Virus record (IMG/VR): IMGVR_UViG_3300017989_000062
Location: 21,483 to 85,482 of that record
Strand: one strand, 5' to 3'
Origin: a virus
Taxonomy: Duplodnaviria > Heunggongvirae > Uroviricota > Caudoviricetes
Length of the DNA: 64,000 bases
The notes under the pieces were generated by a model. It saw only the letters and a program-made list of their open reading frames with translations, ran no database searches and was not told the DNA's origin. Positions within the stretch are counted from its first letter, which is position 1. Each line of letters begins with the position of its first letter. This document shows positions 46,777-60,416 of this stretch, one piece after another. Both the position numbers and the translations under genes were made by a program.

Positions 46777-47508
46777 ATGGCTGAAGCTGATAAATTAGCA
46801 GAATTAATAGAGAATCAAGAAGAAGATTCAGATGCGATCCAACAATCCATTGATGGTGTTGATGAACAAATTGCAGAACAAACAGATATACAAAACTCAA
46901 TGTATTTTACAATGGATCAAGCATGTAATGATATTATTGATTTTGTTGTCCCTAGCAAGGGAGATATGGTTGTTGAATATGGAAATTTTAGAACAACCAA
47001 TGCAACTGATTGGTATGTAGCAGATGCTATTCTTGATAATTCTGATGTTGACCCAAATAACAATGTTACTTATTTTTCTGGAACAGGATTTGAATGTGAT
47101 GGTGATCAAACAGGTTCATTTCCAGTGGGTGATACAATTTTATTTGCCGATATTGATAGTACAGCAGCTACATTTTCAACAATCGTTGATTCAGTATATG
47201 ATTCAACTTCACATGTTGGCGTCACTTATGTTGAGGTAGCTGATAGTGTTATTCCAACTACCGTTGAAAAGGTTGGGGTTCTGTCTTATCAACATGGTGG
47301 GGTTGGTTGGGATAGTGATGCTGACATACAGGCAAGAGTGGATGATTTTAACTACGCATATAACCATATAATTCAACCATTGGGTTTTGGTGGGACATAT
47401 GGAACTATGGAAATGATTGCAGTTTTAACCAATTCTAAAGGATTATTACAATCGAATAAATCTGTGGTAGATCAACGTGCCACAAGATTAGGAAGATATT
47501 CTTCATGA
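46777..47508 (+). CDS. acidic hypothetical protein, probably structural
   Basis: GGAGG RBS; baseplate context. Confidence 0.7.
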   Translation: MAEADKLAELIENQEEDSDAIQQSIDGVDEQIAEQTDIQNSMYFTMDQACNDIIDFVVPSKGDMVVEYGNFRTTNATDWYVADAILDNSDVDPNNNVTYFSGTGFECDGDQTGSFPVGDTILFADIDSTAATFSTIVDSVYDSTSHVGVTYVEVADSVIPTTVEKVGVLSYQHGGVGWDSDADIQARVDDFNYAYNHIIQPLGFGGTYGTMEMIAVLTNSKGLLQSNKSVVDQRATRLGRYSS

Positions 47509-48380
47509 ACAAGTTAAGATGTGGGTTATGTGGATTTGTGACGAAGAGTTGTTCACAGCTTACTGGTCATCTACGACATACTCATGGTTTGTGGAAAAAG
47601 GATCAGGAATGGTATTATATGAAGTATATACAATATCCTTCTCGAGATGTTTATAGCGGATTTTGTAAGTGGTGTGGGTTGCCGACAAAATTCCACAGAA
47701 TATCTGATGGGTTTCAGTTGTTTTGTGATCATACATGTCGAGCAAATTATGAATCCACGATTAGGAATCCGTTAGATAAACCAGGAGCTAGAAAGAGATT
47801 ATCAGAAGCTCATAAAAGAATTGCTCATTTACATGCTTCCCTTGTTCGTGGTAATAAAAATCCGATGAAGCGACATGATATTGCAATGAAAGTTCAAGCT
47901 ACAATGGAAAAAAATGGACATCCAACAAGAGGAAAAACATATGAACAAATATATGGTGTAGAAAAAGCAAAGAAATTACGACACTTAAGATCTAAACATG
48001 TAAACCGACCACATATCATAGAAGCAATACGTAAAAAAATGTTAAATGGTGGTGCAGCTTATTTAAACTCTTTTATAAAAAATCCTTCGAAACCCCAAAA
48101 GAAACTTTATAAAATATGTAAACAAATATTTCCAGATTCTGTTTTAAATTTATCATGTCTTAATTTCAGTCTTGATATTGCGATTCCGAGCATTAATGTT
48201 GCTATTGAATATGATGGTAGTTATTGGCACCAAGATATTGATGCTGACTTAAAACGACAACAGTTGATTGAAGAAGAAGGTTGGATTGTTTTAAGATATC
48301 GAGATTACGTTCCTTCTAAAAATACATTACTAGACGACATTAAGACAATAACTGGAGGTGATGTTAGAGATGCCAGGTAA
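47505..48380 (+). mobile_element. homing-endonuclease-like protein (Zn finger plus DUF559/Vsr-like nuclease)
   Basis: CGLC...H...H; LNGGAAYLNSFIKNPSKPQ...AIEYDGSYWH; paralog of 31209. Confidence 0.8.
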
Positions 48381-48688: not shown

Positions 48689-49201
48689 ATGAAAATACCC
48701 TTACGACCTAGTCTTCTTAAAGTAAGAAGACGAACAAAATGGATAATACTCCACCATACAGCGGAGATGTACGAGCAGCCAGCTTCTCGGATAGATAATC
48801 CAAAATATCAAATGCCAGGGATTTTTAAAGGAGTTCTTGAGAAAAAACAAGGTGATGTAAATTATCATTACATTGTTGATAAGGTGCAAGAAGATTATGT
48901 TCCAATAGTTTGTAGACCATTTGTATATATGTGTGAATGGAATGATATACCAGAGGATATTAATAATGCTGCAGTCCATGTTGCCTTAATGGGTTCTTAC
49001 TCCTTCAAAGTTCCTGAGAAAAGGTGTTATGAAATTTTATCTTTTCGTATATTAAATCCTCTTCTTAAAATGTTAAAACTTGCTCCAAGTAGAATCAAAT
49101 TTCATAGAGATGTTTCAAGAAGTCCTGAAATAGATTGTCCAGGTGATTTTGTTGATCCTGCTATTGTTGAAGCAATGGTTAGACGCTTTGTTATAAAATA
49201 A
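48689..49201 (+). CDS. N-acetylmuramoyl-L-alanine amidase (Amidase_2-like)
   Basis: IILHHTA, YHYIVD, FHRDV...DCPG. Confidence 0.82.
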   Translation: MKIPLRPSLLKVRRRTKWIILHHTAEMYEQPASRIDNPKYQMPGIFKGVLEKKQGDVNYHYIVDKVQEDYVPIVCRPFVYMCEWNDIPEDINNAAVHVALMGSYSFKVPEKRCYEILSFRILNPLLKMLKLAPSRIKFHRDVSRSPEIDCPGDFVDPAIVEAMVRRFVIK

Positions 49202-49276: not shown

Positions 49277-49290
49277 CTATATATATTACT
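49277..49290 (+). promoter_or_regulatory. class-1 candidate phage promoter
   Basis: CTATATATATTACT. Confidence 0.7.
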
Positions 49291-49497: not shown

Positions 49498-50130
49498 ATG
49501 GCGCTGTGTATGAAGAAGGAGGAGATAGTAACACCCGCAGTTGTAAAACAGACCTTGACCTCGGCATTAAAACTGTCGAGAAAAATCTATTGGAAAATGG
49601 TCAAAAACGTCAAATTGGTTCTACGTTATAGTAGTCAGCCGTCAAATGTAGAACCGTATTTTGAAAGTAAGGCGGCTCAAGCGGCAAAAATTGAGGAGAT
49701 TCGAGCAGACCAACTTGCGCGGTTATATCAAGCTGTCAATATTCGTGCTGATATTGATCACACTAATGCAACTACATGGGTTTGGTGGAATGGTGAACTC
49801 TGGCGTGTTGCTGCTCTTATCGCATTACGAAAAACCCTTAAACGAGACAAACAAGATAAGTTGACACAAACATCCATGCCGAATCTAGATTCAGACAAAA
49901 TTTACGGACATGGCCACCTCTATCAAATGGTTCTGGATGCCCAGACTATTAACACACAAGTTGCAGCTACGTTACCTGATGGCATTACAATGGTTCGGTA
50001 CTATGACGAGGAGATGAAGCAAAAACATCTCAATGAGTGGGTTGAGATGATGGATGCCCTGGATGACTTACTTTATGATATAAACTCCATGACGGAGCTT
50101 CGTTCCCCCCCAGTCCCCGACAAAATGTAA
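49498..50130 (+). CDS. coiled-coil protein (DIP1984-like)
   Basis: ALKLS...ADIDHTNATT...DDLLYDINSMTEL pattern; GC-richer. Confidence 0.55.
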   Translation: MALCMKKEEIVTPAVVKQTLTSALKLSRKIYWKMVKNVKLVLRYSSQPSNVEPYFESKAAQAAKIEEIRADQLARLYQAVNIRADIDHTNATTWVWWNGELWRVAALIALRKTLKRDKQDKLTQTSMPNLDSDKIYGHGHLYQMVLDAQTINTQVAATLPDGITMVRYYDEEMKQKHLNEWVEMMDALDDLLYDINSMTELRSPPVPDKM

Positions 50131-50132
50131 AT

Positions 50133-50318
50133 GACTTAAGCGTTTTGGCAGCTCAGTAGCGTTAAAAAAGAAACTAATGCGACAGCGGGAATATGTAAAT
50201 ATTATTCAACTATTATCCTCGGGTTGAGTGATTGGTTCTTTCGCATTGCCTTCAACACTTCCGAACGCTACTGGGCTACCAAATTTTCCGCCTTTTTAAG
50301 TCGTCTTTTTGACGACTT
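50133..50318 (+). ncRNA. candidate long rod-shaped structured RNA / regulatory leader
   Basis: ~20-bp stem 50143-50163/50264-50283, inner stem 50176-50182/50241-50247, 3' hairpin 50298-50318. Confidence 0.5.
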
Positions 50319-51810: not shown

Positions 51811-51857
51811 AAAGAGTGTCCACCTTCAAATGAGGGTGGGCACTTTTCCGTTTTTTT
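51811..51857 (+). terminator. intrinsic terminator
   Basis: AGTGTCCACC/GGTGGGCACT stem plus T-run. Confidence 0.75.
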
Positions 51858-51886: not shown

Positions 51887-51910
51887 ATTGCGTTTACAGG
51901 AGAAAATAAC

Positions 51911-52348
51911 ATGACTAAACTAGAAGAAGGTATGCAAATTCTAGACGAACTATTAAGAAAAGCATACTCCTTAATTAGTCCGCTTGATATGCATTCAGAT
52001 CTTAAATGGTATCTTGATCGTGATATGAGAAACGCTCAGATGGAAAAATTTCCAAAATGTTTTATGAAAATGAAAAATAAAATTGGGCGAGATATTCCCT
52101 TTCCTATTTGTAATGTTTCTGGGATGGCTGATTTGAAAATGGTTGATTTTTCATTAAAAATGGCTGAGCGAATGAAAGACGAGCCAGATTATGATCAAGA
52201 TAATATTGATTTAGTAGTCACACAGTTAAAAAGAGTTAAAGCTCGATTTGATAAAGACATTCCAACTCCAGCACCAGAAGCTGCTAGAAAAGCAAACGTG
52301 ACGAAGAATTTTAATGCTATGTCATCTTACTTAAAAGGTCTTAGATAA
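51911..52348 (+). CDS. hypothetical protein coupled to RNAP beta'
   Basis: AGGAG RBS before ATG 51911; TAATG overlap with the next gene. Confidence 0.7.
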   Translation: MTKLEEGMQILDELLRKAYSLISPLDMHSDLKWYLDRDMRNAQMEKFPKCFMKMKNKIGRDIPFPICNVSGMADLKMVDFSLKMAERMKDEPDYDQDNIDLVVTQLKRVKARFDKDIPTPAPEAARKANVTKNFNAMSSYLKGLR

Positions 52349-55300
52349 TGATTCGATTTTTGAACATGAAAGAGTTTACTCAAAAACTCGTTCCTGTAAC
52401 AACAACTGAATACTTTACAAGAGCAGGCGAATTTCATATTGGAGGACTTTTTTCAGAGACTATTTTTGGTATTACGGATCGAGAAAGAACTGACACATTT
52501 TCATATATAGATTTATATGCCAAAGTTATCCATCCAGAAGCATTGAAAATTTTAATTCGTCTCGATGGTAAAATTTCGAAATTTATTTCCACAGAACAAA
52601 ATTTTTCTTTAAATGAGAATGGCTCGTTGACAGTAGATGAAAAAGGTGTTACTGGTATTTCAGCTTTTATTAAGTTGTTTCCTGATATTAAATTTCGTAT
52701 AGAGACATCCGACCGAGATAAACTACATCAAGTTGTACAACGAGCATATCAAAACAACACATTATTTCTGGATAGGTTGCCCGTAATACCTCCTGAACAT
52801 AGACCAGCTTTTAAAGACGAAGATGGAAACTGGACTATGGATTCAATGAATGATGTGTATCTTAGTGTAATGCGAAAAGCACTTCAAGTCAGAAGTGCAA
52901 TTGGGTCAGGTCCTCTTTTTGACATTCTTAATTATTCCTTACAAGAAGTTGTTATCGAACATCATAAATATATTCATACAAAGGTCGCAAAGAAACAAGG
53001 TATTATTCGGAGTCAGCTCCTATCTAAACGTGTCGATTTTAGCGGTAGAGCGGTCATCACACCAGGTCCTGACCTCAAGGTTAATGAAATTGGAGTTCCG
53101 TTTAGAATGGCTGTGGGACTGTTTGAGCCGTTTATTCTACACCAGTTATTATACACAGGTCGTCTAGATAAAGAAATCCTTTCAGCTGAAATTAAACAAT
53201 TTAACGATTTAGAATTGTCAGTAGATAGTGTTAGAAAGGTTCTGAAAGCAATTAAAGTTGGTGATAGGATTCCAGAAACATTATATAAGATTTTTTATGA
53301 AGCTACTGAAGTAGCTATGATGAATCGTGTTGTTTTATGTAAACGAGATCCAGCACTTCAAGCAGAGTCTGTTCGTGCCTATCATGCGGTTTTAATTGAA
53401 GGTAATACAATTCAGATGTGTACCATGCAGGTTGGCGGACACAATGCAGACTTTGATGGGGACGCAATGGCGTTATATCATCCAATAACAGATGAAGCTC
53501 AAGCAGAAGCCAAAGATAAAATGTTGAAAGCTGTATCTGGTTCATCTTCTACAGCTATTACGTTTAGTTTATCAAAGGAAATGATTGTTGGTCTTTATAG
53601 TATTACGAAAGATGTTAAACCAAAAAATTCTCCGCTTGAAGTTACAAGAGAGTTGTTAGAGAATGCTACAGACCCATTTGTTGCTGTTAAATTCAAAGGA
53701 CAAAAAACAACAATGGGTAAAGCTCTTTTTAATAGTTGTCTTCCTCTCAATCTACCATTTGTTAATCAACAAGTTACAAAAAAGATTGCAAATACAATTT
53801 TGTCCAAACTTGTAGAAACACATGGACCAGATGCTGCTCGGGAGAGTGCTTCAAGAATGGAGAAGCTTGGTTTTAAATTTTCTACGATTATGGCTCCAAG
53901 TATAAAACTTGATGATTTTGAAGTTCCACCAAAAGTATATGAATTAAAGAAAAAACTAAAAGGTGTAGATACTGATACTGCTCTTCTTATTCTAAAACAG
54001 ATGTATGATATTGTTAAGAAACATTTAGCTGATTCTGGTTTATTTGATTTGTCTGAATCAGGGTCAACAAAAGGTTGGGATCAACCAATGCAGATCCTTG
54101 TTGCGAAAGGGGTTATTGCAGATTCTGAAGGTAATATTCTGCCTGTTATTTCTGCTTCTTTTGCTGATGGTCTTACTCCAACTGAATACTTTAACGCTGC
54201 ATCTGGTGCAAGAAAGGGTATTATTGACCGAGTTATTAATACATCAACAACTGGTTATATGTCCAGAAAACTTGCATTTGTTCTTAATAACTTAGAGGCT
54301 CATTCACATTTACGAGATTGCGGAACTAAACTTACTGTTACATTAAAACTTACTAAAGATATTATACATCGACTTTCTGGTCGTTTTCATATTGTTAGAG
54401 GTAAAGTTGTAGAATTTGATCAAGAAAAATATAAACCAGGAGATGTTATTCAATTAAGAAGTCCAATTTATTGTAAAAGTAAAAAACTGTGTTTAACATG
54501 TTATGGTAAATTATTACAGAGACATCAAACCCCATATGTTGGTGTGTTAGCTGCTCAAGTTATTGGAGAAAAAGGTACGCAGTTAATTATGCGTACATTC
54601 CATACTGGTGGTGCTGTTACAATCAAACAAAAGGATATGCTTCAAGATATTATCAATAATGACCCAATTGCAGATATAGATCTAAAAACTATGAAGCAAT
54701 ATATCCAACAAGATGGTGGAACGCTTATAGTTAAACAACAGTGTGATCTAATTATTGATTTGATGGCGTATACAGAAAATAAAAATATCGAGATTAAAGA
54801 TGACAGTGTTTGGTTAAGTGGGTTATCATGTCGTGTAGAGTTTGAAGATCGAATGTTTAATTTAATTTTGGATTATCCTGTTGAAATTAAGAAACAAGAT
54901 TTTGAACATCAAAAGAAAAAGTTTATTCGATGCAGTTATGTACCAGATAGTATTATGTTAGAAATTCCTCTTGAGGCTCTAGAGTTAAAAGAGCAAGCTC
55001 TATATGTTGAGAGACTTCTTGCAGGCAAAGAAGTATTCAAAAGTGTTGACCATCTTATTTTAAAGATTGTCCGTGTTTATGCTGAAATTGGTGCTGATAT
55101 GGATATGACTCATTTGGAATGTTTGTTAAGTAATTGTATTCGAGACAAAAATAATTTGAGTATACCAGCAAGATTAGGAAAAACATGGGATCCAGTCCTT
55201 GTTAATATCAAAAAAGTTGTGTTCTCAAGCGGCTTCTTGCAGGGTTTAGCTTTTGAGAATATCGGAGAAGCTATTAGAAACGGTTTAATTTCTGAAGAAG

Positions 55301-55362
55301 AAGTAGAACCTAGTATTTTAGAGAAGGTTCTAACTGGTACATTAATTGAGGAGAAGAAATAA
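52348..55362 (+). CDS. rpoC: multisubunit RNA polymerase beta' subunit (phage)
   Basis: GLFSETIFG, KRVDFSGRAVITP, NADFDGD, bridge helix GARKGIID..TGYMSRKL, trigger loop TQLIMRTFHTGG. Confidence 0.97.
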   Translation: MIRFLNMKEFTQKLVPVTTTEYFTRAGEFHIGGLFSETIFGITDRERTDTFSYIDLYAKVIHPEALKILIRLDGKISKFISTEQNFSLNENGSLTVDEKGVTGISAFIKLFPDIKFRIETSDRDKLHQVVQRAYQNNTLFLDRLPVIPPEHRPAFKDEDGNWTMDSMNDVYLSVMRKALQVRSAIGSGPLFDILNYSLQEVVIEHHKYIHTKVAKKQGIIRSQLLSKRVDFSGRAVITPGPDLKVNEIGVPFRMAVGLFEPFILHQLLYTGRLDKEILSAEIKQFNDLELSVDSVRKVLKAIKVGDRIPETLYKIFYEATEVAMMNRVVLCKRDPALQAESVRAYHAVLIEGNTIQMCTMQVGGHNADFDGDAMALYHPITDEAQAEAKDKMLKAVSGSSSTAITFSLSKEMIVGLYSITKDVKPKNSPLEVTRELLENATDPFVAVKFKGQKTTMGKALFNSCLPLNLPFVNQQVTKKIANTILSKLVETHGPDAARESASRMEKLGFKFSTIMAPSIKLDDFEVPPKVYELKKKLKGVDTDTALLILKQMYDIVKKHLADSGLFDLSESGSTKGWDQPMQILVAKGVIADSEGNILPVISASFADGLTPTEYFNAASGARKGIIDRVINTSTTGYMSRKLAFVLNNLEAHSHLRDCGTKLTVTLKLTKDIIHRLSGRFHIVRGKVVEFDQEKYKPGDVIQLRSPIYCKSKKLCLTCYGKLLQRHQTPYVGVLAAQVIGEKGTQLIMRTFHTGGAVTIKQKDMLQDIINNDPIADIDLKTMKQYIQQDGGTLIVKQQCDLIIDLMAYTENKNIEIKDDSVWLSGLSCRVEFEDRMFNLILDYPVEIKKQDFEHQKKKFIRCSYVPDSIMLEIPLEALELKEQALYVERLLAGKEVFKSVDHLILKIVRVYAEIGADMDMTHLECLLSNCIRDKNNLSIPARLGKTWDPVLVNIKKVVFSSGFLQGLAFENIGEAIRNGLISEEEVEPSILEKVLTGTLIEEKK

Positions 55363-55364
55363 CG

Positions 55365-58300
55365 ATGGTTATATTTAAAAGTCTAAGACAATATACACAT
55401 TTAGTTAATGGAATAAGATTTCCTCAAAAGAATACCAATCCGTTTCTTCTTGTATATTTTTCTGAAAATTCACTATTGATTGACGATTATCCAAAGCTTG
55501 GAATTAAGTCAATTGATGCTCGGTACGTTGTTTCTCCAATCACGAAAGTTCCTAGAACATGGTTAGCACCAGATACTAAAAAGTTGTTTAAAACATACGG
55601 ATTATATGCTTATACAGATAGACAAAAAATGCCAACTGGCCAGAATCTATTCTATGATATGACCAAGTATCTAAGAGCTGTTGAAACAACATATAAGGTC
55701 ACTAATTATCGTCAAAGAGCTGGTTTTCTTATAATGAATTTGTTAAGAGAGGCATTTGATAAATATCCAAGTCACTATCAAAAGATTTTGATGTACTCGG
55801 TTAATGCTTCAAAAGATTTATCAGCACTTTTAAATAGAAAAATATTTCCGTTGTTAAAACAAATAAAAGATGGCGATTTAATGTTTGACCATATGGTTCT
55901 TTCTATAGTTGGAGAAACAGGCACAAAACATCGTCTATTAATTAAAGACAGAGTATATCAGTTTACGAGAATTTATCAAATTCTAAAAAGCATCAAACTA
56001 GACCAAGCGGATGAAGATATTGTAGAAGATACCCAAGCAGCAGCAGTTGAAATTATTCAGAAAATTGAATCTGATATAAAACCTTCAAATAAAGCAGCCA
56101 TAAAAGGCGCTATAGAAGATTTTCTTGTTCAATCCTCATCGAGTTTAGAGAAGCTAACTTCTAAAGCAGCTTCGACTGAGGATATGAAAAGAATTGCTAT
56201 GGCTGCTATTCTGTCGAAAACAAATGGTGATATTCCAAAATCTATTGGATTGGTACAATCAATTCCTGTTAAAAATATTCAGAAAGCAATCCGAGCTATT
56301 GATAAAAATTATGCTGATGAAATGTTAGAACCAATAAAACCAGTTTCATCAACAGATGATATTTTAGTAGAAGCGGCCAATACCCCAAAAGCGGTAGATA
56401 ATAAAACACCAGAACATATATTTCAAAAGAGACAAGTAGATTTTCAAAAGAACTTAAGAAAGGATCTTGAAAGTTCCTTTAAGGTTTTGGAAAAGAAAGA
56501 TCAACCATTGTTTGTCAAGAAGGTTGAAATTGTTCCGAAGAAACAACCAAAAGGCGAACTGAACAAATCTGATCTCGAGATTGCAAAAATTACATTACAA
56601 GATAAGAATGGAAATTCTCACGTAGTTCAAATTGATATTCCAAAGATTGACCCAAATACAGGCACTTTTAGAGTTTACGGTAAGAAAAAGTGTTTAATCA
56701 ATCAAGTGATTTTATGTCCTATCACCTTTCCTGCCCCATACGAGTCGAGATTTGAAGGGTCTTATTCCAAATTCAGAATCCATAGCAAGAGAACAGTTCG
56801 ATTGAAATATCTTGAAGGGTATATTGGTTCATATAAACTTCCATTATCAGTTGTATTGTTTTACAGTTTTGGGTTTGAACAGATTTTAAAAGATTATAAG
56901 TTAAAATACGAGTATACAGAAGATAAACCTAAGAAAACTGATAAATTTATATATAAAATTAATGATAAGAAGTACATTCGTTTTCTAAACGTTGACACAG
57001 AACTCAAAGATGAATTTTGTGAATCAGTTGGAAAGATAGGTTTGGTTAAATACGCAGACACAATCAAGTTTGAGTTTGGAACGAAAGAGTATTTCGATGC
57101 ACTTATTAAAGAAATGACCGGACGAGTAAATTCAACTTGGTTGTTGAATAATATGCTTGAGAATATTGTCGATCCTGTTGCGAAACAAGTTTTAATTAAT
57201 AAACAACTTCCTCATGAATTAAAAGATATTATGTATTATATGGCATCTAAAGTTGTGGAAGGTTTTTCACAAGCAAGAAATGATTTATCTAACCAGAGAG
57301 TTAGAGGATCGGAAACAATTGTCCATTTAGTTCATAAACAATTACAAGCAGCACATACGGATTATCGTGAACAGAAATTAGCCGGCAATGATAAAGCTGA
57401 ATTTAAAATGAATCAGTCAAAAGTAATGATGGATTTTAATCAGCTTGAAATTGTGCAGGATATGGAATATTCCAATCCAATTGAAGAAATGGCTACAATG
57501 ACTCGAATATCTCCTGTTGGAAAAACTGTTGGCGGCATTCCTGATAAACAAGCTATTCAAACACAGGCTAGAAGTGTGCATAATAGCTACTTTGGAAATG
57601 TTGATCCACTAGATACACCTGAAGGTGGAAACATAGGAATTGTTCAACATTTAACAGTTAATGCTTTTGTTACTTCTGCAAGAGGATTGATTTTACAAAA
57701 AGAAATATCTGATAAAGAAGGTTCTGGAGTTTTATCAACCACAACTTGTTTAACACCGTTTGTTGAGAATAATGATGGAGCGCGTGTTATCATGTTGTCA
57801 GCTCAACAACAGCAATGTGTTCCGTTAAAAAATCCAGAACCACCAGTAGTACAGTCTGGCTATGAATCATTGCTAACAAACGTATTATCAGAAAATTTTG
57901 TTAAGAAAGCTTCTTGTAATGGTAAGGTTATAGAAGTTACACCAGATCAAATTACAATACAATGTACAAAAGGTGGTAAACAAACTATTCCCACAATTCC
58001 TGTGCATCTAAGATCTGGTTCTGGTAAAGATACATTAAGTGTGTTTCAACATAAAGTAAAAGTCGGACAATCAACCAAGAGCAATCAAATTATCTCTGAA
58101 GGGAGTTGTGTTTCAAATGGTAGTATTGCTTTAGGTAGAACTCTTTTAACAGCAGTTATGCCTTACAAAGGATATAATTTTGAAGATAGTGTTGTTATTA
58201 GTGATAAATTAGCTAAAGAAGATACTCTTACATCATTACATGGTATATTCGAGGAAGTAATTATTTCAGACAAAGATAGATTATTATTTATTTGTGAGAT

Positions 58301-59465
58301 TGGCCAAAAAATAGAAAGAGGAAATCCGATTCTTAGAAAGACCATGGGTGAGTTGGAGGAATTGCTCGGAATAGATGAAGATGAAGAGAGTATAGATTAT
58401 GCTGGTGGACAGATGATTAAGAAGAGTCCAGGTGGCACAATTGTTGATATTGAAGTTTTTTCAAATGTAGCTGACGATAAATTTCCAGAACTTACAAAAC
58501 TAATTCGTAGAACAAGAAAATTTCATGGGTTAACTGCGAAAGATAAGATTACTGTTCGAGGAACTCCAATAAAAGGGGTGTTAGTTAGATTTAAAATTGA
58601 ACAAGAAATGCGCATTGGTGTTGGGGATAAGTTAACAAATCGTTATGGTGCGAAAGGAACTATCGGACTGATTGAGAAGGACGAGTTGATGCCCAGAACC
58701 CCTTGGGGTGAGAGAATAGAGTATATTATGAATCCAATAGGAATTATTGGACGTATGAATGTTGGGCAACTTTTAGAGTTATATACAGGTTTGATTTCAA
58801 GAGATTTAGCTTCACGAGCTTTACAAATGAAAACTAAAGCTCAAGTATTAACTTTGTTAAGACAAGTATACCCAAAACTAGACGGAAGTAATAAACAGGA
58901 ATTTAGCGGCGAATTTTTAAAGAATTTTGCTAAATTGTCTGACACAAAATTTAAAATGTTTATGAAGCAAATTCAAAACACTAACTTTGTACCAGTAATT
59001 ATTCCACCATTTAAAGCTCCAACTCATCAAAGTATTCATCAAGTGTTAAAACTCTTGAAGTTGAAAACTGGATATTATTTAAACCTTCCAGAATATAATA
59101 CTAAAACCAAAAAACCAGTTCCGGTTGGTTATATGTATATGAATAAATTGGAACATATCAGTGAAGAAAAAACACATTCAAGATCAACTGGACCAGTTAC
59201 AGGAAAAACAAAACAACCAACGTCTGGTAAAAGAAGAGAAGGTGGACAAAGACTTGGTGAAATGGATACATATGCTTTTATATCATATAATTGTACTACA
59301 TTGCTGTCTGAATTAATGGGTCCGTTATCAGATGATCATGTGACAAAAAATGAAATTATTTCAGATATTGTACAGAAGGGTAAGGCTGAGTTTAGAGTTC
59401 CGAAAACATCACCCGCAAGAGATTTGCTCTCAAGTTATATGACGGCATTGTGCTTGACAAGATAA
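55365..59465 (+). CDS. rpoB: multisubunit RNA polymerase beta subunit with N-terminal extension (phage)
   Basis: DTPEGGNIG, GYNFEDS, GDKLTNRYGAKG, KLEH...HSRSTG, GGQRLGEMD. Confidence 0.97.
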   Translation: MVIFKSLRQYTHLVNGIRFPQKNTNPFLLVYFSENSLLIDDYPKLGIKSIDARYVVSPITKVPRTWLAPDTKKLFKTYGLYAYTDRQKMPTGQNLFYDMTKYLRAVETTYKVTNYRQRAGFLIMNLLREAFDKYPSHYQKILMYSVNASKDLSALLNRKIFPLLKQIKDGDLMFDHMVLSIVGETGTKHRLLIKDRVYQFTRIYQILKSIKLDQADEDIVEDTQAAAVEIIQKIESDIKPSNKAAIKGAIEDFLVQSSSSLEKLTSKAASTEDMKRIAMAAILSKTNGDIPKSIGLVQSIPVKNIQKAIRAIDKNYADEMLEPIKPVSSTDDILVEAANTPKAVDNKTPEHIFQKRQVDFQKNLRKDLESSFKVLEKKDQPLFVKKVEIVPKKQPKGELNKSDLEIAKITLQDKNGNSHVVQIDIPKIDPNTGTFRVYGKKKCLINQVILCPITFPAPYESRFEGSYSKFRIHSKRTVRLKYLEGYIGSYKLPLSVVLFYSFGFEQILKDYKLKYEYTEDKPKKTDKFIYKINDKKYIRFLNVDTELKDEFCESVGKIGLVKYADTIKFEFGTKEYFDALIKEMTGRVNSTWLLNNMLENIVDPVAKQVLINKQLPHELKDIMYYMASKVVEGFSQARNDLSNQRVRGSETIVHLVHKQLQAAHTDYREQKLAGNDKAEFKMNQSKVMMDFNQLEIVQDMEYSNPIEEMATMTRISPVGKTVGGIPDKQAIQTQARSVHNSYFGNVDPLDTPEGGNIGIVQHLTVNAFVTSARGLILQKEISDKEGSGVLSTTTCLTPFVENNDGARVIMLSAQQQQCVPLKNPEPPVVQSGYESLLTNVLSENFVKKASCNGKVIEVTPDQITIQCTKGGKQTIPTIPVHLRSGSGKDTLSVFQHKVKVGQSTKSNQIISEGSCVSNGSIALGRTLLTAVMPYKGYNFEDSVVISDKLAKEDTLTSLHGIFEEVIISDKDRLLFICEIGQKIERGNPILRKTMGELEELLGIDEDEESIDYAGGQMIKKSPGGTIVDIEVFSNVADDKFPELTKLIRRTRKFHGLTAKDKITVRGTPIKGVLVRFKIEQEMRIGVGDKLTNRYGAKGTIGLIEKDELMPRTPWGERIEYIMNPIGIIGRMNVGQLLELYTGLISRDLASRALQMKTKAQVLTLLRQVYPKLDGSNKQEFSGEFLKNFAKLSDTKFKMFMKQIQNTNFVPVIIPPFKAPTHQSIHQVLKLLKLKTGYYLNLPEYNTKTKKPVPVGYMYMNKLEHISEEKTHSRSTGPVTGKTKQPTSGKRREGGQRLGEMDTYAFISYNCTTLLSELMGPLSDDHVTKNEIISDIVQKGKAEFRVPKTSPARDLLSSYMTALCLTR

Positions 59466-59474
59466 GGAGTTAAC

Positions 59475-60056
59475 ATGTCTGAAGAAGGATTAAAAGCTTT
59501 ACTAGGAACTGTTGAAGAAGAAGAAAGTGAAGAATATTACGATGAATATCCAGAAGAGATAGCTTTTAAACGGTATGATTTTATTGAACTTTTAAACGCA
59601 GTAGGTACGCCAGATTTTAAATCAATGTATCAAAATATTTTAAATACTGATTTTTCAGTATTAGATAGACGGATCTTGGCTAGAGAAATAGTAGATAGAA
59701 TTGAAGAAGTATATGATATTGTTCTCTACTTACCAGAAGAGCCAGATCCGCAAGAAGTTGCTTCAATATTCAAGTTTATCAAATTCATCGAGTTTGATTA
59801 TATTGATTTTATAGCTGATATCTGGAAGTTTATGAATGTTGATTTAAGAACTGATATACGAGATTTTTGTATATCTAATTCAGATAGAATCATATCTGTT
59901 ATTGATGAACAGATTGAAACTCACTTTTTACCTCAGATAATTTCAGAATTTTTAAGAACATATAATAAAGACGACATGATTAGTTTGTTTATAAACCTTA
60001 CTGAGAAATCAAGAATGCTAATCGAAGCGAAAATTAGAGAGGGGGAATTAAAGTAA
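59475..60056 (+). CDS. acidic hypothetical protein
   Basis: AAGGAG RBS; follows RNAP beta. Confidence 0.7.
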   Translation: MSEEGLKALLGTVEEEESEEYYDEYPEEIAFKRYDFIELLNAVGTPDFKSMYQNILNTDFSVLDRRILAREIVDRIEEVYDIVLYLPEEPDPQEVASIFKFIKFIEFDYIDFIADIWKFMNVDLRTDIRDFCISNSDRIISVIDEQIETHFLPQIISEFLRTYNKDDMISLFINLTEKSRMLIEAKIREGELK

Positions 60057-60394: not shown

Positions 60395-60416
60395 CTATAT
60401 ATATTATTTACTAAGA
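60395..60416 (+). promoter_or_regulatory. class-1 candidate phage promoter
   Basis: CTATATATATTATTTACTAAGA, identical to 21814-21835. Confidence 0.75.

Follow-up and report, generated by a model that had tools for sequence, protein, structure and literature searches.

Phage-encoded multisubunit RNA polymerases (RNAPs) have been described in jumbo phages such as phiKZ and AR9, where a virion and a non-virion enzyme are distinguished. In the non-virion RNAPs, promoter specificity is conferred by a sigma-like subunit, AR9 gp226 or phiKZ gp68 (PMC9209446). A 2026 review leaves open whether the two enzymes originated by duplication or by two acquisitions (PMC13282480), and Iyer et al. (2021; PMC7824862) considered the split state of the subunits possibly ancestral, a relic from before the last universal common ancestor (LUCA). 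Weinheimer and Aylward (2020; Nat Commun 11:4506, PMC7481178) reported 97 metagenomic Caudovirales contigs with full-length β and β′ genes that form a deep clade, and named them multimeric-RNAP-encoding Caudovirales (mReC). A jumbo-phage RNAP review of the same year (PMC7598289) mentions mReC as a separate discovery, points out that the mReC authors excluded jumbo-phage RNAPs for fear of long-branch attraction, and states that virion-type RNAP had never been purified. Here we describe a pair of unsplit genes for RNAP β′ and β in a stretch of 64,000 nucleotides (the window), which spans positions 21483-85482 of a linear 149,482-bp IMG/VR contig (IMGVR_UViG_3300017989_000062). CheckV puts this contig at about 48% of its genome. 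We think it likely that the pair is the catalytic core of one of two multisubunit RNAPs in an uncultured, T4-like giant mReC phage with a genome of about 300 kb.

Two unsplit RNAP gene pairs on one contig

The two genes of the window pair lie head to tail (window coordinates):

52348-55362, plus strand: RNAP β′, 1004 amino acids (aa), a single unsplit open reading frame (ORF), probable virion-type paralogue, N-terminal zinc ribbon absent
55365-59465, plus strand: RNAP β, 1366 aa, a single unsplit ORF; residues 1 to ~320 are a conserved extension and canonical β begins at ~380

This pair is a genuine and intact phage RNAP core. Profile searches matched β′ to Pfam Rpb1 domains 2, 5 and 3 and β to Rpb2 domains 6, 3 and 7, and all elements that mark a multisubunit (two-barrel) core were found. 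NADFDGD occupies β′ residues 366-372 (window 53443-53463), and alignment with bacterial β′ identifies a bridge helix, GARKGIIDRVINTSTTGYMSRKL, as well as a trigger loop, GEKGTQLIMRTFHTGG. In β, GGQRLGEMD is present and aligned to bacterial β, and the double-psi beta-barrel (DPBB) motif GDKLTNRYGAKG (window 58600-58650, residues about 1085-1100) retains both lysines. Within this motif β reads RYGAKG where bacteria read RHGNKG, the His and Asn being substituted. Bacteria share GDKxxxRHGNKG with the β of the second pair described below, and it is the window β that deviates from it. The genes are arranged β′ then β and are collinear with those of relatives, in which β′ has 1003-1013 aa and β 1358-1372 aa; from these constant lengths it follows that neither gene holds an intein or an intron. 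The first-pass annotation, which was made from the letters of the window, had described a complete catalytic set in two unsplit genes of this order, free of inteins and introns and with no α gene in the window. Each of these statements was borne out, and the α profile (PF01000) was unmatched even across the whole contig.

That annotation had also proposed a search of the full genome for a second RNAP, for α and for ω. A whole-contig Pfam search did recover a second pair, in genome coordinates:

108780-111479: second β′, 899 aa, unsplit
111559-114762: second β; translation from a TTG start gives 1067 aa, whereas others call it at 1013 aa

It lies outside the window, ~30 kb downstream of the first, and is likewise unsplit and in β′-β order. 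The window and second sets are only distantly similar, with β′ 30% and β 27% identical, and the second β′ retains the N-terminal zinc ribbon (CQCG...CGECG) that the window β′ lacks. By BLAST, the second β′ is nearer to bacterial β′ (~190-208 bits) than to the window-type β′ of relatives (135-154 bits). Both β′ genes are also present, 34-37 kb apart, in each of the three IMG/VR relatives (84%, 84% and 51% identity). As to α (PF01000) and ω (PF01192), neither was matched anywhere on the 149,482-bp contig by profile searches that were positive in 14 of 14 control genomes; that part of the search can speak only for about 48% of the genome, and genome-wide absence is unproven.

The contig has a T4-like gene content that includes topoisomerase II subunits, an SbcC-type nuclease, ribonucleotide reductase, baseplate wedge genes and an amidase, and its T4-type large terminase matches PF03237. 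The major capsid profile PF07068 had no match on this half-genome contig, for which the table of PMC7481178 counts one capsid hit. Homologues of the genes studied here sit on contigs of up to 304 kb, which fits a genome of about 300 kb.

Both pairs have been in print since 2020. The supplement of PMC7481178 lists 3300017989_____Ga0180432_10000070, of 149,482 bp, with a set a of 1367/1005 and a set b of 1014/900, all marked 'included'. Counted with the stop codon, these sizes equal those of both pairs here, and the identification rests on sizes and sample rather than on a comparison of sequences. The window β′ and β genes are already published as set 'a' of the mReC contig Ga0180432_10000070, and a close relative (L012; 105,615 bp) is listed in the same supplement. 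The deep branching claimed by the first-pass annotation is the published conclusion for this contig, while the novelty it implied is lost: unsplit phage β and β′ genes, these included, have been known since that paper, and the cultured phages vB_Yru_GN1 and RHph_TM30 have unsplit genes too. The main text of PMC7481178 is silent on virion and non-virion enzymes, phiKZ, split genes and a sigma-like subunit, and sets a and b appear only in its supplementary table. In the literature, which we covered incompletely, we found no paper in which mReC sets a and b are related to the virion and non-virion RNAPs.

Relation to the virion and non-virion enzymes

The following PHROG families were identified through the subunits of phiKZ and AR9:

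PHROG 2986: gp180, virion β′ N-part
PHROG 2987: gp55, non-virion β′ N-part
PHROG 3148: gp178, virion β N-part
PHROG 3015: gp74, non-virion β′ C-part
PHROG 2962: AR9 virion β′ C-part
PHROG 3295: non-virion β C-part

The window β′ scored 136 bits on family 2986 (virion) versus 85 on 2987 (non-virion), and the second β′ scored 68 and 133 bits, respectively. On PHROG 3148, the gp178 family, the window β reached 196 bits and the second β 88. Pairwise searches were made against phiKZ, OBP, phiR1-37, Staphylococcus S6, Listeria LPJP1 and AR9. In all six, the β′ N-part of the window scored higher with the virion-type paralogue and that of the second set with the non-virion-type paralogue; the virion class was taken from the record annotation in phiKZ, AR9 and OBP, and from ORF size and the later tree in phiR1-37, S6 and LPJP1. 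The best jumbo-phage matches of the window β were phiKZ gp178, OBP_278 and phiR1-37 g099, which are large proteins annotated as virion or structural. In addition, the β′-then-β order is common to the window pair, OBP_277/278 and phiKZ gp180-gp178. From these scores and the tree described next, with evidence that comes mostly from the N-terminal halves of the proteins, we infer with fair support that the window pair is orthologous to the virion RNAP (phiKZ gp180/gp178 type) and that the second pair is nearer the non-virion RNAP.

A maximum-likelihood tree was built from the β′ N-part only (81 rows, 416 columns; LG+C20+F+G4 with posterior mean site frequencies (PMSF), careful search). It included representatives, clustered at 50% identity, of the 12,392 matches in a full-library search (1,026 of them at E<=1e-30). 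To these were added the two sets from this genome and from its relatives, 12 pieces from jumbo phages, three cultured phages with a single set and ten bacteria. Phage β′ forms one clade apart from bacteria (support 100/98). Within it, the window set falls in a clade supported at 99/95, together with all six jumbo virion pieces, a broad metagenomic group and the Fusobacterium phage JD-Fnp6. The sister group, itself poorly supported, consists of the second set and the six non-virion pieces, which are nested among three set-2 rows (96/83). Forcing the twelve jumbo pieces together cost 46.2 log-likelihood units, with a modest p-value of 0.028 in the approximately unbiased (AU) test. Long-branch attraction should tend to join the two jumbo paralogues; the tree separates them, so the result runs against that bias.

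Two further observations were made on the β′ family. JD-Fnp6 (ON464763.1) is a cultured 178-kb phage with an unsplit β′ of 935 aa, which groups at 100/100 with the split jumbo virion β′ N-pieces. Many representatives of the family end or begin near residue 370-375, just past NADFDGD, and others are 100-800 aa longer than normal (odd ends or lengths in P0126, P0129, P0131-P0133, P0139, P0140, P0143, P0150, P0172 and P0227). Such a pattern points to recurrent breakage, and to inteins or introns having inserted, at the place where jumbo-phage β′ splits, and some of these proteins may be fragments at contig ends.

The window β differs from its second-set counterpart in its N-terminal region. The motif GTFxxNGxxK, with which bacterial β starts, is at residues ~433-447 of the window β and at residue ~146 of the second β, an offset that implies roughly 300-320 extra N-terminal residues in the former. 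At least 273 protein clusters, all of constant length, share this extension at 44-68% identity. A structural model divides the protein as follows:

β residues 1-210: alpha/beta domain, predicted local distance difference test (pLDDT) about 90
β residues 215-319: helical domain
β residues 320-361: disordered linker
β from residue ~380: canonical β

Fold searches of the extension in the PDB and in AlphaFold DB clusters returned the canonical β part only. In profile-profile comparison with gp178-type proteins, β residues 1-500 matched with 95% probability (E 2e-8), a signal obtained because the canonical β start is included.

A sigma-like gene and the block around the pair

The window pair stands in a block of small genes that is bracketed by two exact copies of a promoter-like 12-mer:

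49277-49288, plus strand: promoter-like 12-mer CTATATATATTA, exact copy preceding the 210-aa ORF and the gene for the sigma-like subunit
49498-50130, plus strand: 210-aa ORF, the first gene past CTATATATATTA, with no Pfam or PHROG match; a 210-aa ORF is in the same place in the relative L013
50365-51810, plus strand: gene for a sigma-like subunit, as judged by an AlphaFold (AF2) model and Foldseek; 481 aa, GTG start
51812-51857, plus strand: terminator-like hairpin directly after the sigma-like gene, with a 16-bp stem, 7 G-C pairs and a T run
51908-52348, plus strand: 146-aa ORF whose stop overlaps the β′ start codon, with no Pfam match
59475-60056, plus strand: 193-aa acidic ORF close behind β, with no family match; an ORF of similar size follows β in L013
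60056-60373, plus strand: 105-aa ORF overlapping the stop of the 193-aa ORF, with no Pfam or PHROG match
60395-60406, plus strand: second exact copy of CTATATATATTA, putative start of the next transcription unit

The 481-aa product of the sigma-like gene was called from 50365, a 528-aa ORF from a TTG at 50224 being judged too long. Its metagenomic homologues number more than 558, with identities of 57-87%. No Pfam domain or PHROG family was matched, the PHROG family of gp68 included; a PDB sequence search returned nothing, and a protein atlas search gave only weak leads, all <0.9. An AF2 model built on 27 sequences (pLDDT 82) was compared with the PDB by Foldseek. Only three matches were significant, all at probability 1.0 and with template modelling (TM) scores of 0.28-0.44, and the next match had an E of 0.27. 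Two of the three are AR9 gp226 (7s01_A and 7um0_A; E 2e-6 and 2e-5, TM 0.41-0.44), and the third is 8que_B, a 495-residue chain of the phiKZ non-virion RNAP (E 2e-4), which we take to be gp68. As modelled, the 481-aa gene product matches the two-domain fold of gp226 (AR9) and gp68 (phiKZ), a sigma-like family whose fold comprises sigma2-like, finger and sigma4-helix elements; the likeness was found at the level of the whole fold. An HMM (hidden Markov model) search of the 149 kb contig found no second sigma-like gene. Prediction of a complex between the sigma-like protein and β′ residues 1-430 scored 0.00, which is no answer and weighs neither way.

The arrangement is conserved. Relatives have the same order of sigma-like gene (481-485 aa), 146-148-aa ORF, β′ and β, the small ORF being kept at its position in L013 (146 aa) and in L014 (148 aa). 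In L014, the relative at 51% identity, two small ORFs of 161 and 148 aa are found between β′ and β (L014:13015-14050). At <=1 mismatch, CTATATATATTA has 10 copies on the 149 kb contig, of which 7 are on the plus strand, all before genome position 82 kb; a contig-wide scan at the same threshold found none upstream of the second RNAP pair. Because copies at 49277 and 60395 bracket the whole RNAP block and none precedes the second pair, the two polymerase sets may fall in different, putative promoter classes. The hairpin, for its part, may separate transcription of the core genes from that of the sigma-like gene, or attenuate it.

Among other features, the small flanking ORFs had zero family matches in Pfam and PHROG scans. 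A scan for sigma-70 promoters gave 61 sites versus 52 +/- 6 in shuffled sequence, which is not above expectation, and no tRNA genes were found in the window. A homing-endonuclease-like gene, with HNH/DUF559-type matches, is located at window 47505-48380, 2 kb upstream of the RNAP block, and adjoining it is an amidase gene (48689-49201).

With this neighbour in mind, the pair could be regarded as functionally a non-virion, sigma-dependent enzyme that is made after infection and works with the gp226/gp68-like protein, so that its virion likeness would not mean packaging. The sigma-like gene is 540 bp upstream in the same orientation, in an arrangement kept in relatives down to 51% identity, the proteins it resembles are non-virion subunits (PMC9209446; PMC13282480), and the neighbouring genes are not structural. 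Nevertheless, the tree, the profiles and the pairwise scores all link the window pair to the virion paralogues, and a strong terminator-like hairpin separates the sigma-like and core genes, so adjacency need not mean partnership. We regard this non-virion role as rather unlikely.

Origin of the two enzymes and comparison with known systems

Several results weigh against the orthology that we favor. The clade of set 2 with the jumbo non-virion pieces is weakly supported (24/68), the AU p-value of 0.028 is modest and belongs to a constrained group that was named after the bit-score pattern had been seen, and the C-terminal halves of both β′ and β do not discriminate between virion and non-virion types. 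The β extension alone (residues 1-330) gave an E of 0.022 versus 0.15 for a reversed control in the comparison with gp178-type proteins, which is not significant. Finally, the sigma-like subunit of AR9 and phiKZ belongs to the non-virion enzyme, yet the gene here adjoins a virion-type core.

Alternatively, the two sets could be the product of a duplication inside the lineage, independent of the jumbo virion/non-virion one. Long branches, or parallel losses such as that of the zinc ribbon, would then have produced the apparent orthology as an artefact. The sequences are indeed very divergent (20-30% identity), the support for set 2 with the non-virion pieces is weak, and the mReC authors had their own long-branch worry about jumbo-phage RNAPs (PMC7598289). 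We nevertheless find such an independent duplication quite improbable, given that the longest-branch jumbo paralogues separate in the tree, that the virion-type clade has a support of 99/95 with an AU p of 0.028 against their union, and that reciprocal scores are concordant in six of six phages. Mis-binned host DNA carrying bacterial rpoC and rpoB has practically no chance of being the source, and was rejected: the best PDB sequence matches of the pair are bacterial β′ and β, but at no more than about 27-30% identity, and the pair has a reversed gene order and a phage context. The β′ N-part tree places it in the separate phage clade (100/98), in agreement with the first-pass annotation, which took the genes for those of a phage RNAP and named nesting inside a bacterial clade as a refutation.

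We propose that one old duplication of unsplit β′/β genes would have produced the virion-type and non-virion-type enzymes, and that fragmentation in phiKZ and AR9 would be later than this duplication. Both paralogues are whole here and each groups with one jumbo-phage paralogue, which favors a single old duplication with splitting thereafter. The numerous broken forms within the β′ family fit the same order of events. The window core would assemble without α or ω, would rely on the neighbouring sigma-like protein for promoter recognition, and would transcribe phage genes without recourse to the host enzyme. Provided that its behaviour matches that of the jumbo-phage orthologues, it would be packaged, injected and used to start early transcription. 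The sigma-like subunit of this phage may also act with the virion-type enzyme, a type with no known initiation factor. As a whole, the reading that this lineage keeps both a virion-type and a non-virion-type RNAP unsplit, with one ancient duplication behind them, splitting as a secondary event and a sigma-like subunit possibly serving the virion-type enzyme, is offered tentatively, at somewhat less than an even chance. In any case, the minimal two-subunit machine envisaged by the first-pass annotation does not stand up to the sigma-like gene upstream, the ~320-aa β extension and the second RNAP set.

If correct, this proposal would contradict the split form as a pre-LUCA relic (PMC7824862) and would answer the question of origin that was called open in PMC13282480. 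An unsplit phage RNAP as such adds nothing beyond the 2020 paper, and the remaining value is evolutionary: the main addition is evidence for an unsplit counterpart of the jumbo-phage virion RNAP together with an unsplit non-virion counterpart in the same genome. Unsplit genes would also ease expression for the biochemistry of virion-type RNAP.

Compared with the systems described so far, the contig matches a member of mReC itself, being a Caudovirales contig with β and β′ that cluster apart from cellular homologues; it shares with that group the unsplit genes, the deep-branching phage clade and the T4-type terminase PF03237. Among cultured phages, Yersinia vB_Yru_GN1/YerA41, Rhizobium RHph_TM30 and Fusobacterium JD-Fnp6 have a full-length β′ as in the window, and vB_Yru_GN1 also shares its β′-then-β order. 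In contrast to the present contig, these three gave one match per genome, and they are ~23-28% identical to the proteins of the window pair. In the tree, RHph_TM30 and GN1 lie below the point where the two sets part, and the β′ of JD-Fnp6 falls in the virion-type clade. The sigma-like protein has the same size and two-domain helical fold as AR9 gp226 and phiKZ gp68 (PMC9209446; PDB 7S01, 7UM0, 8QUE), but differs in its sequence (~10% identity) and in neighbouring a virion-type core. By profile, pairwise score and tree, the closest paralogues of the window pair are the virion RNAPs of phiKZ (gp180, gp178, gp149, gp80) and AR9 (gp144, gp188, gp263), with which it shares the β′-then-β order, the lack of α and ω, and a long extra N-terminal region in β. 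The jumbo-phage virion RNAP is packaged and injected with the DNA, and the window pair may be so too; where the jumbo-phage enzyme is divided among four or five polypeptides, with introns as well in AR9, each subunit in the window is encoded by one gene.

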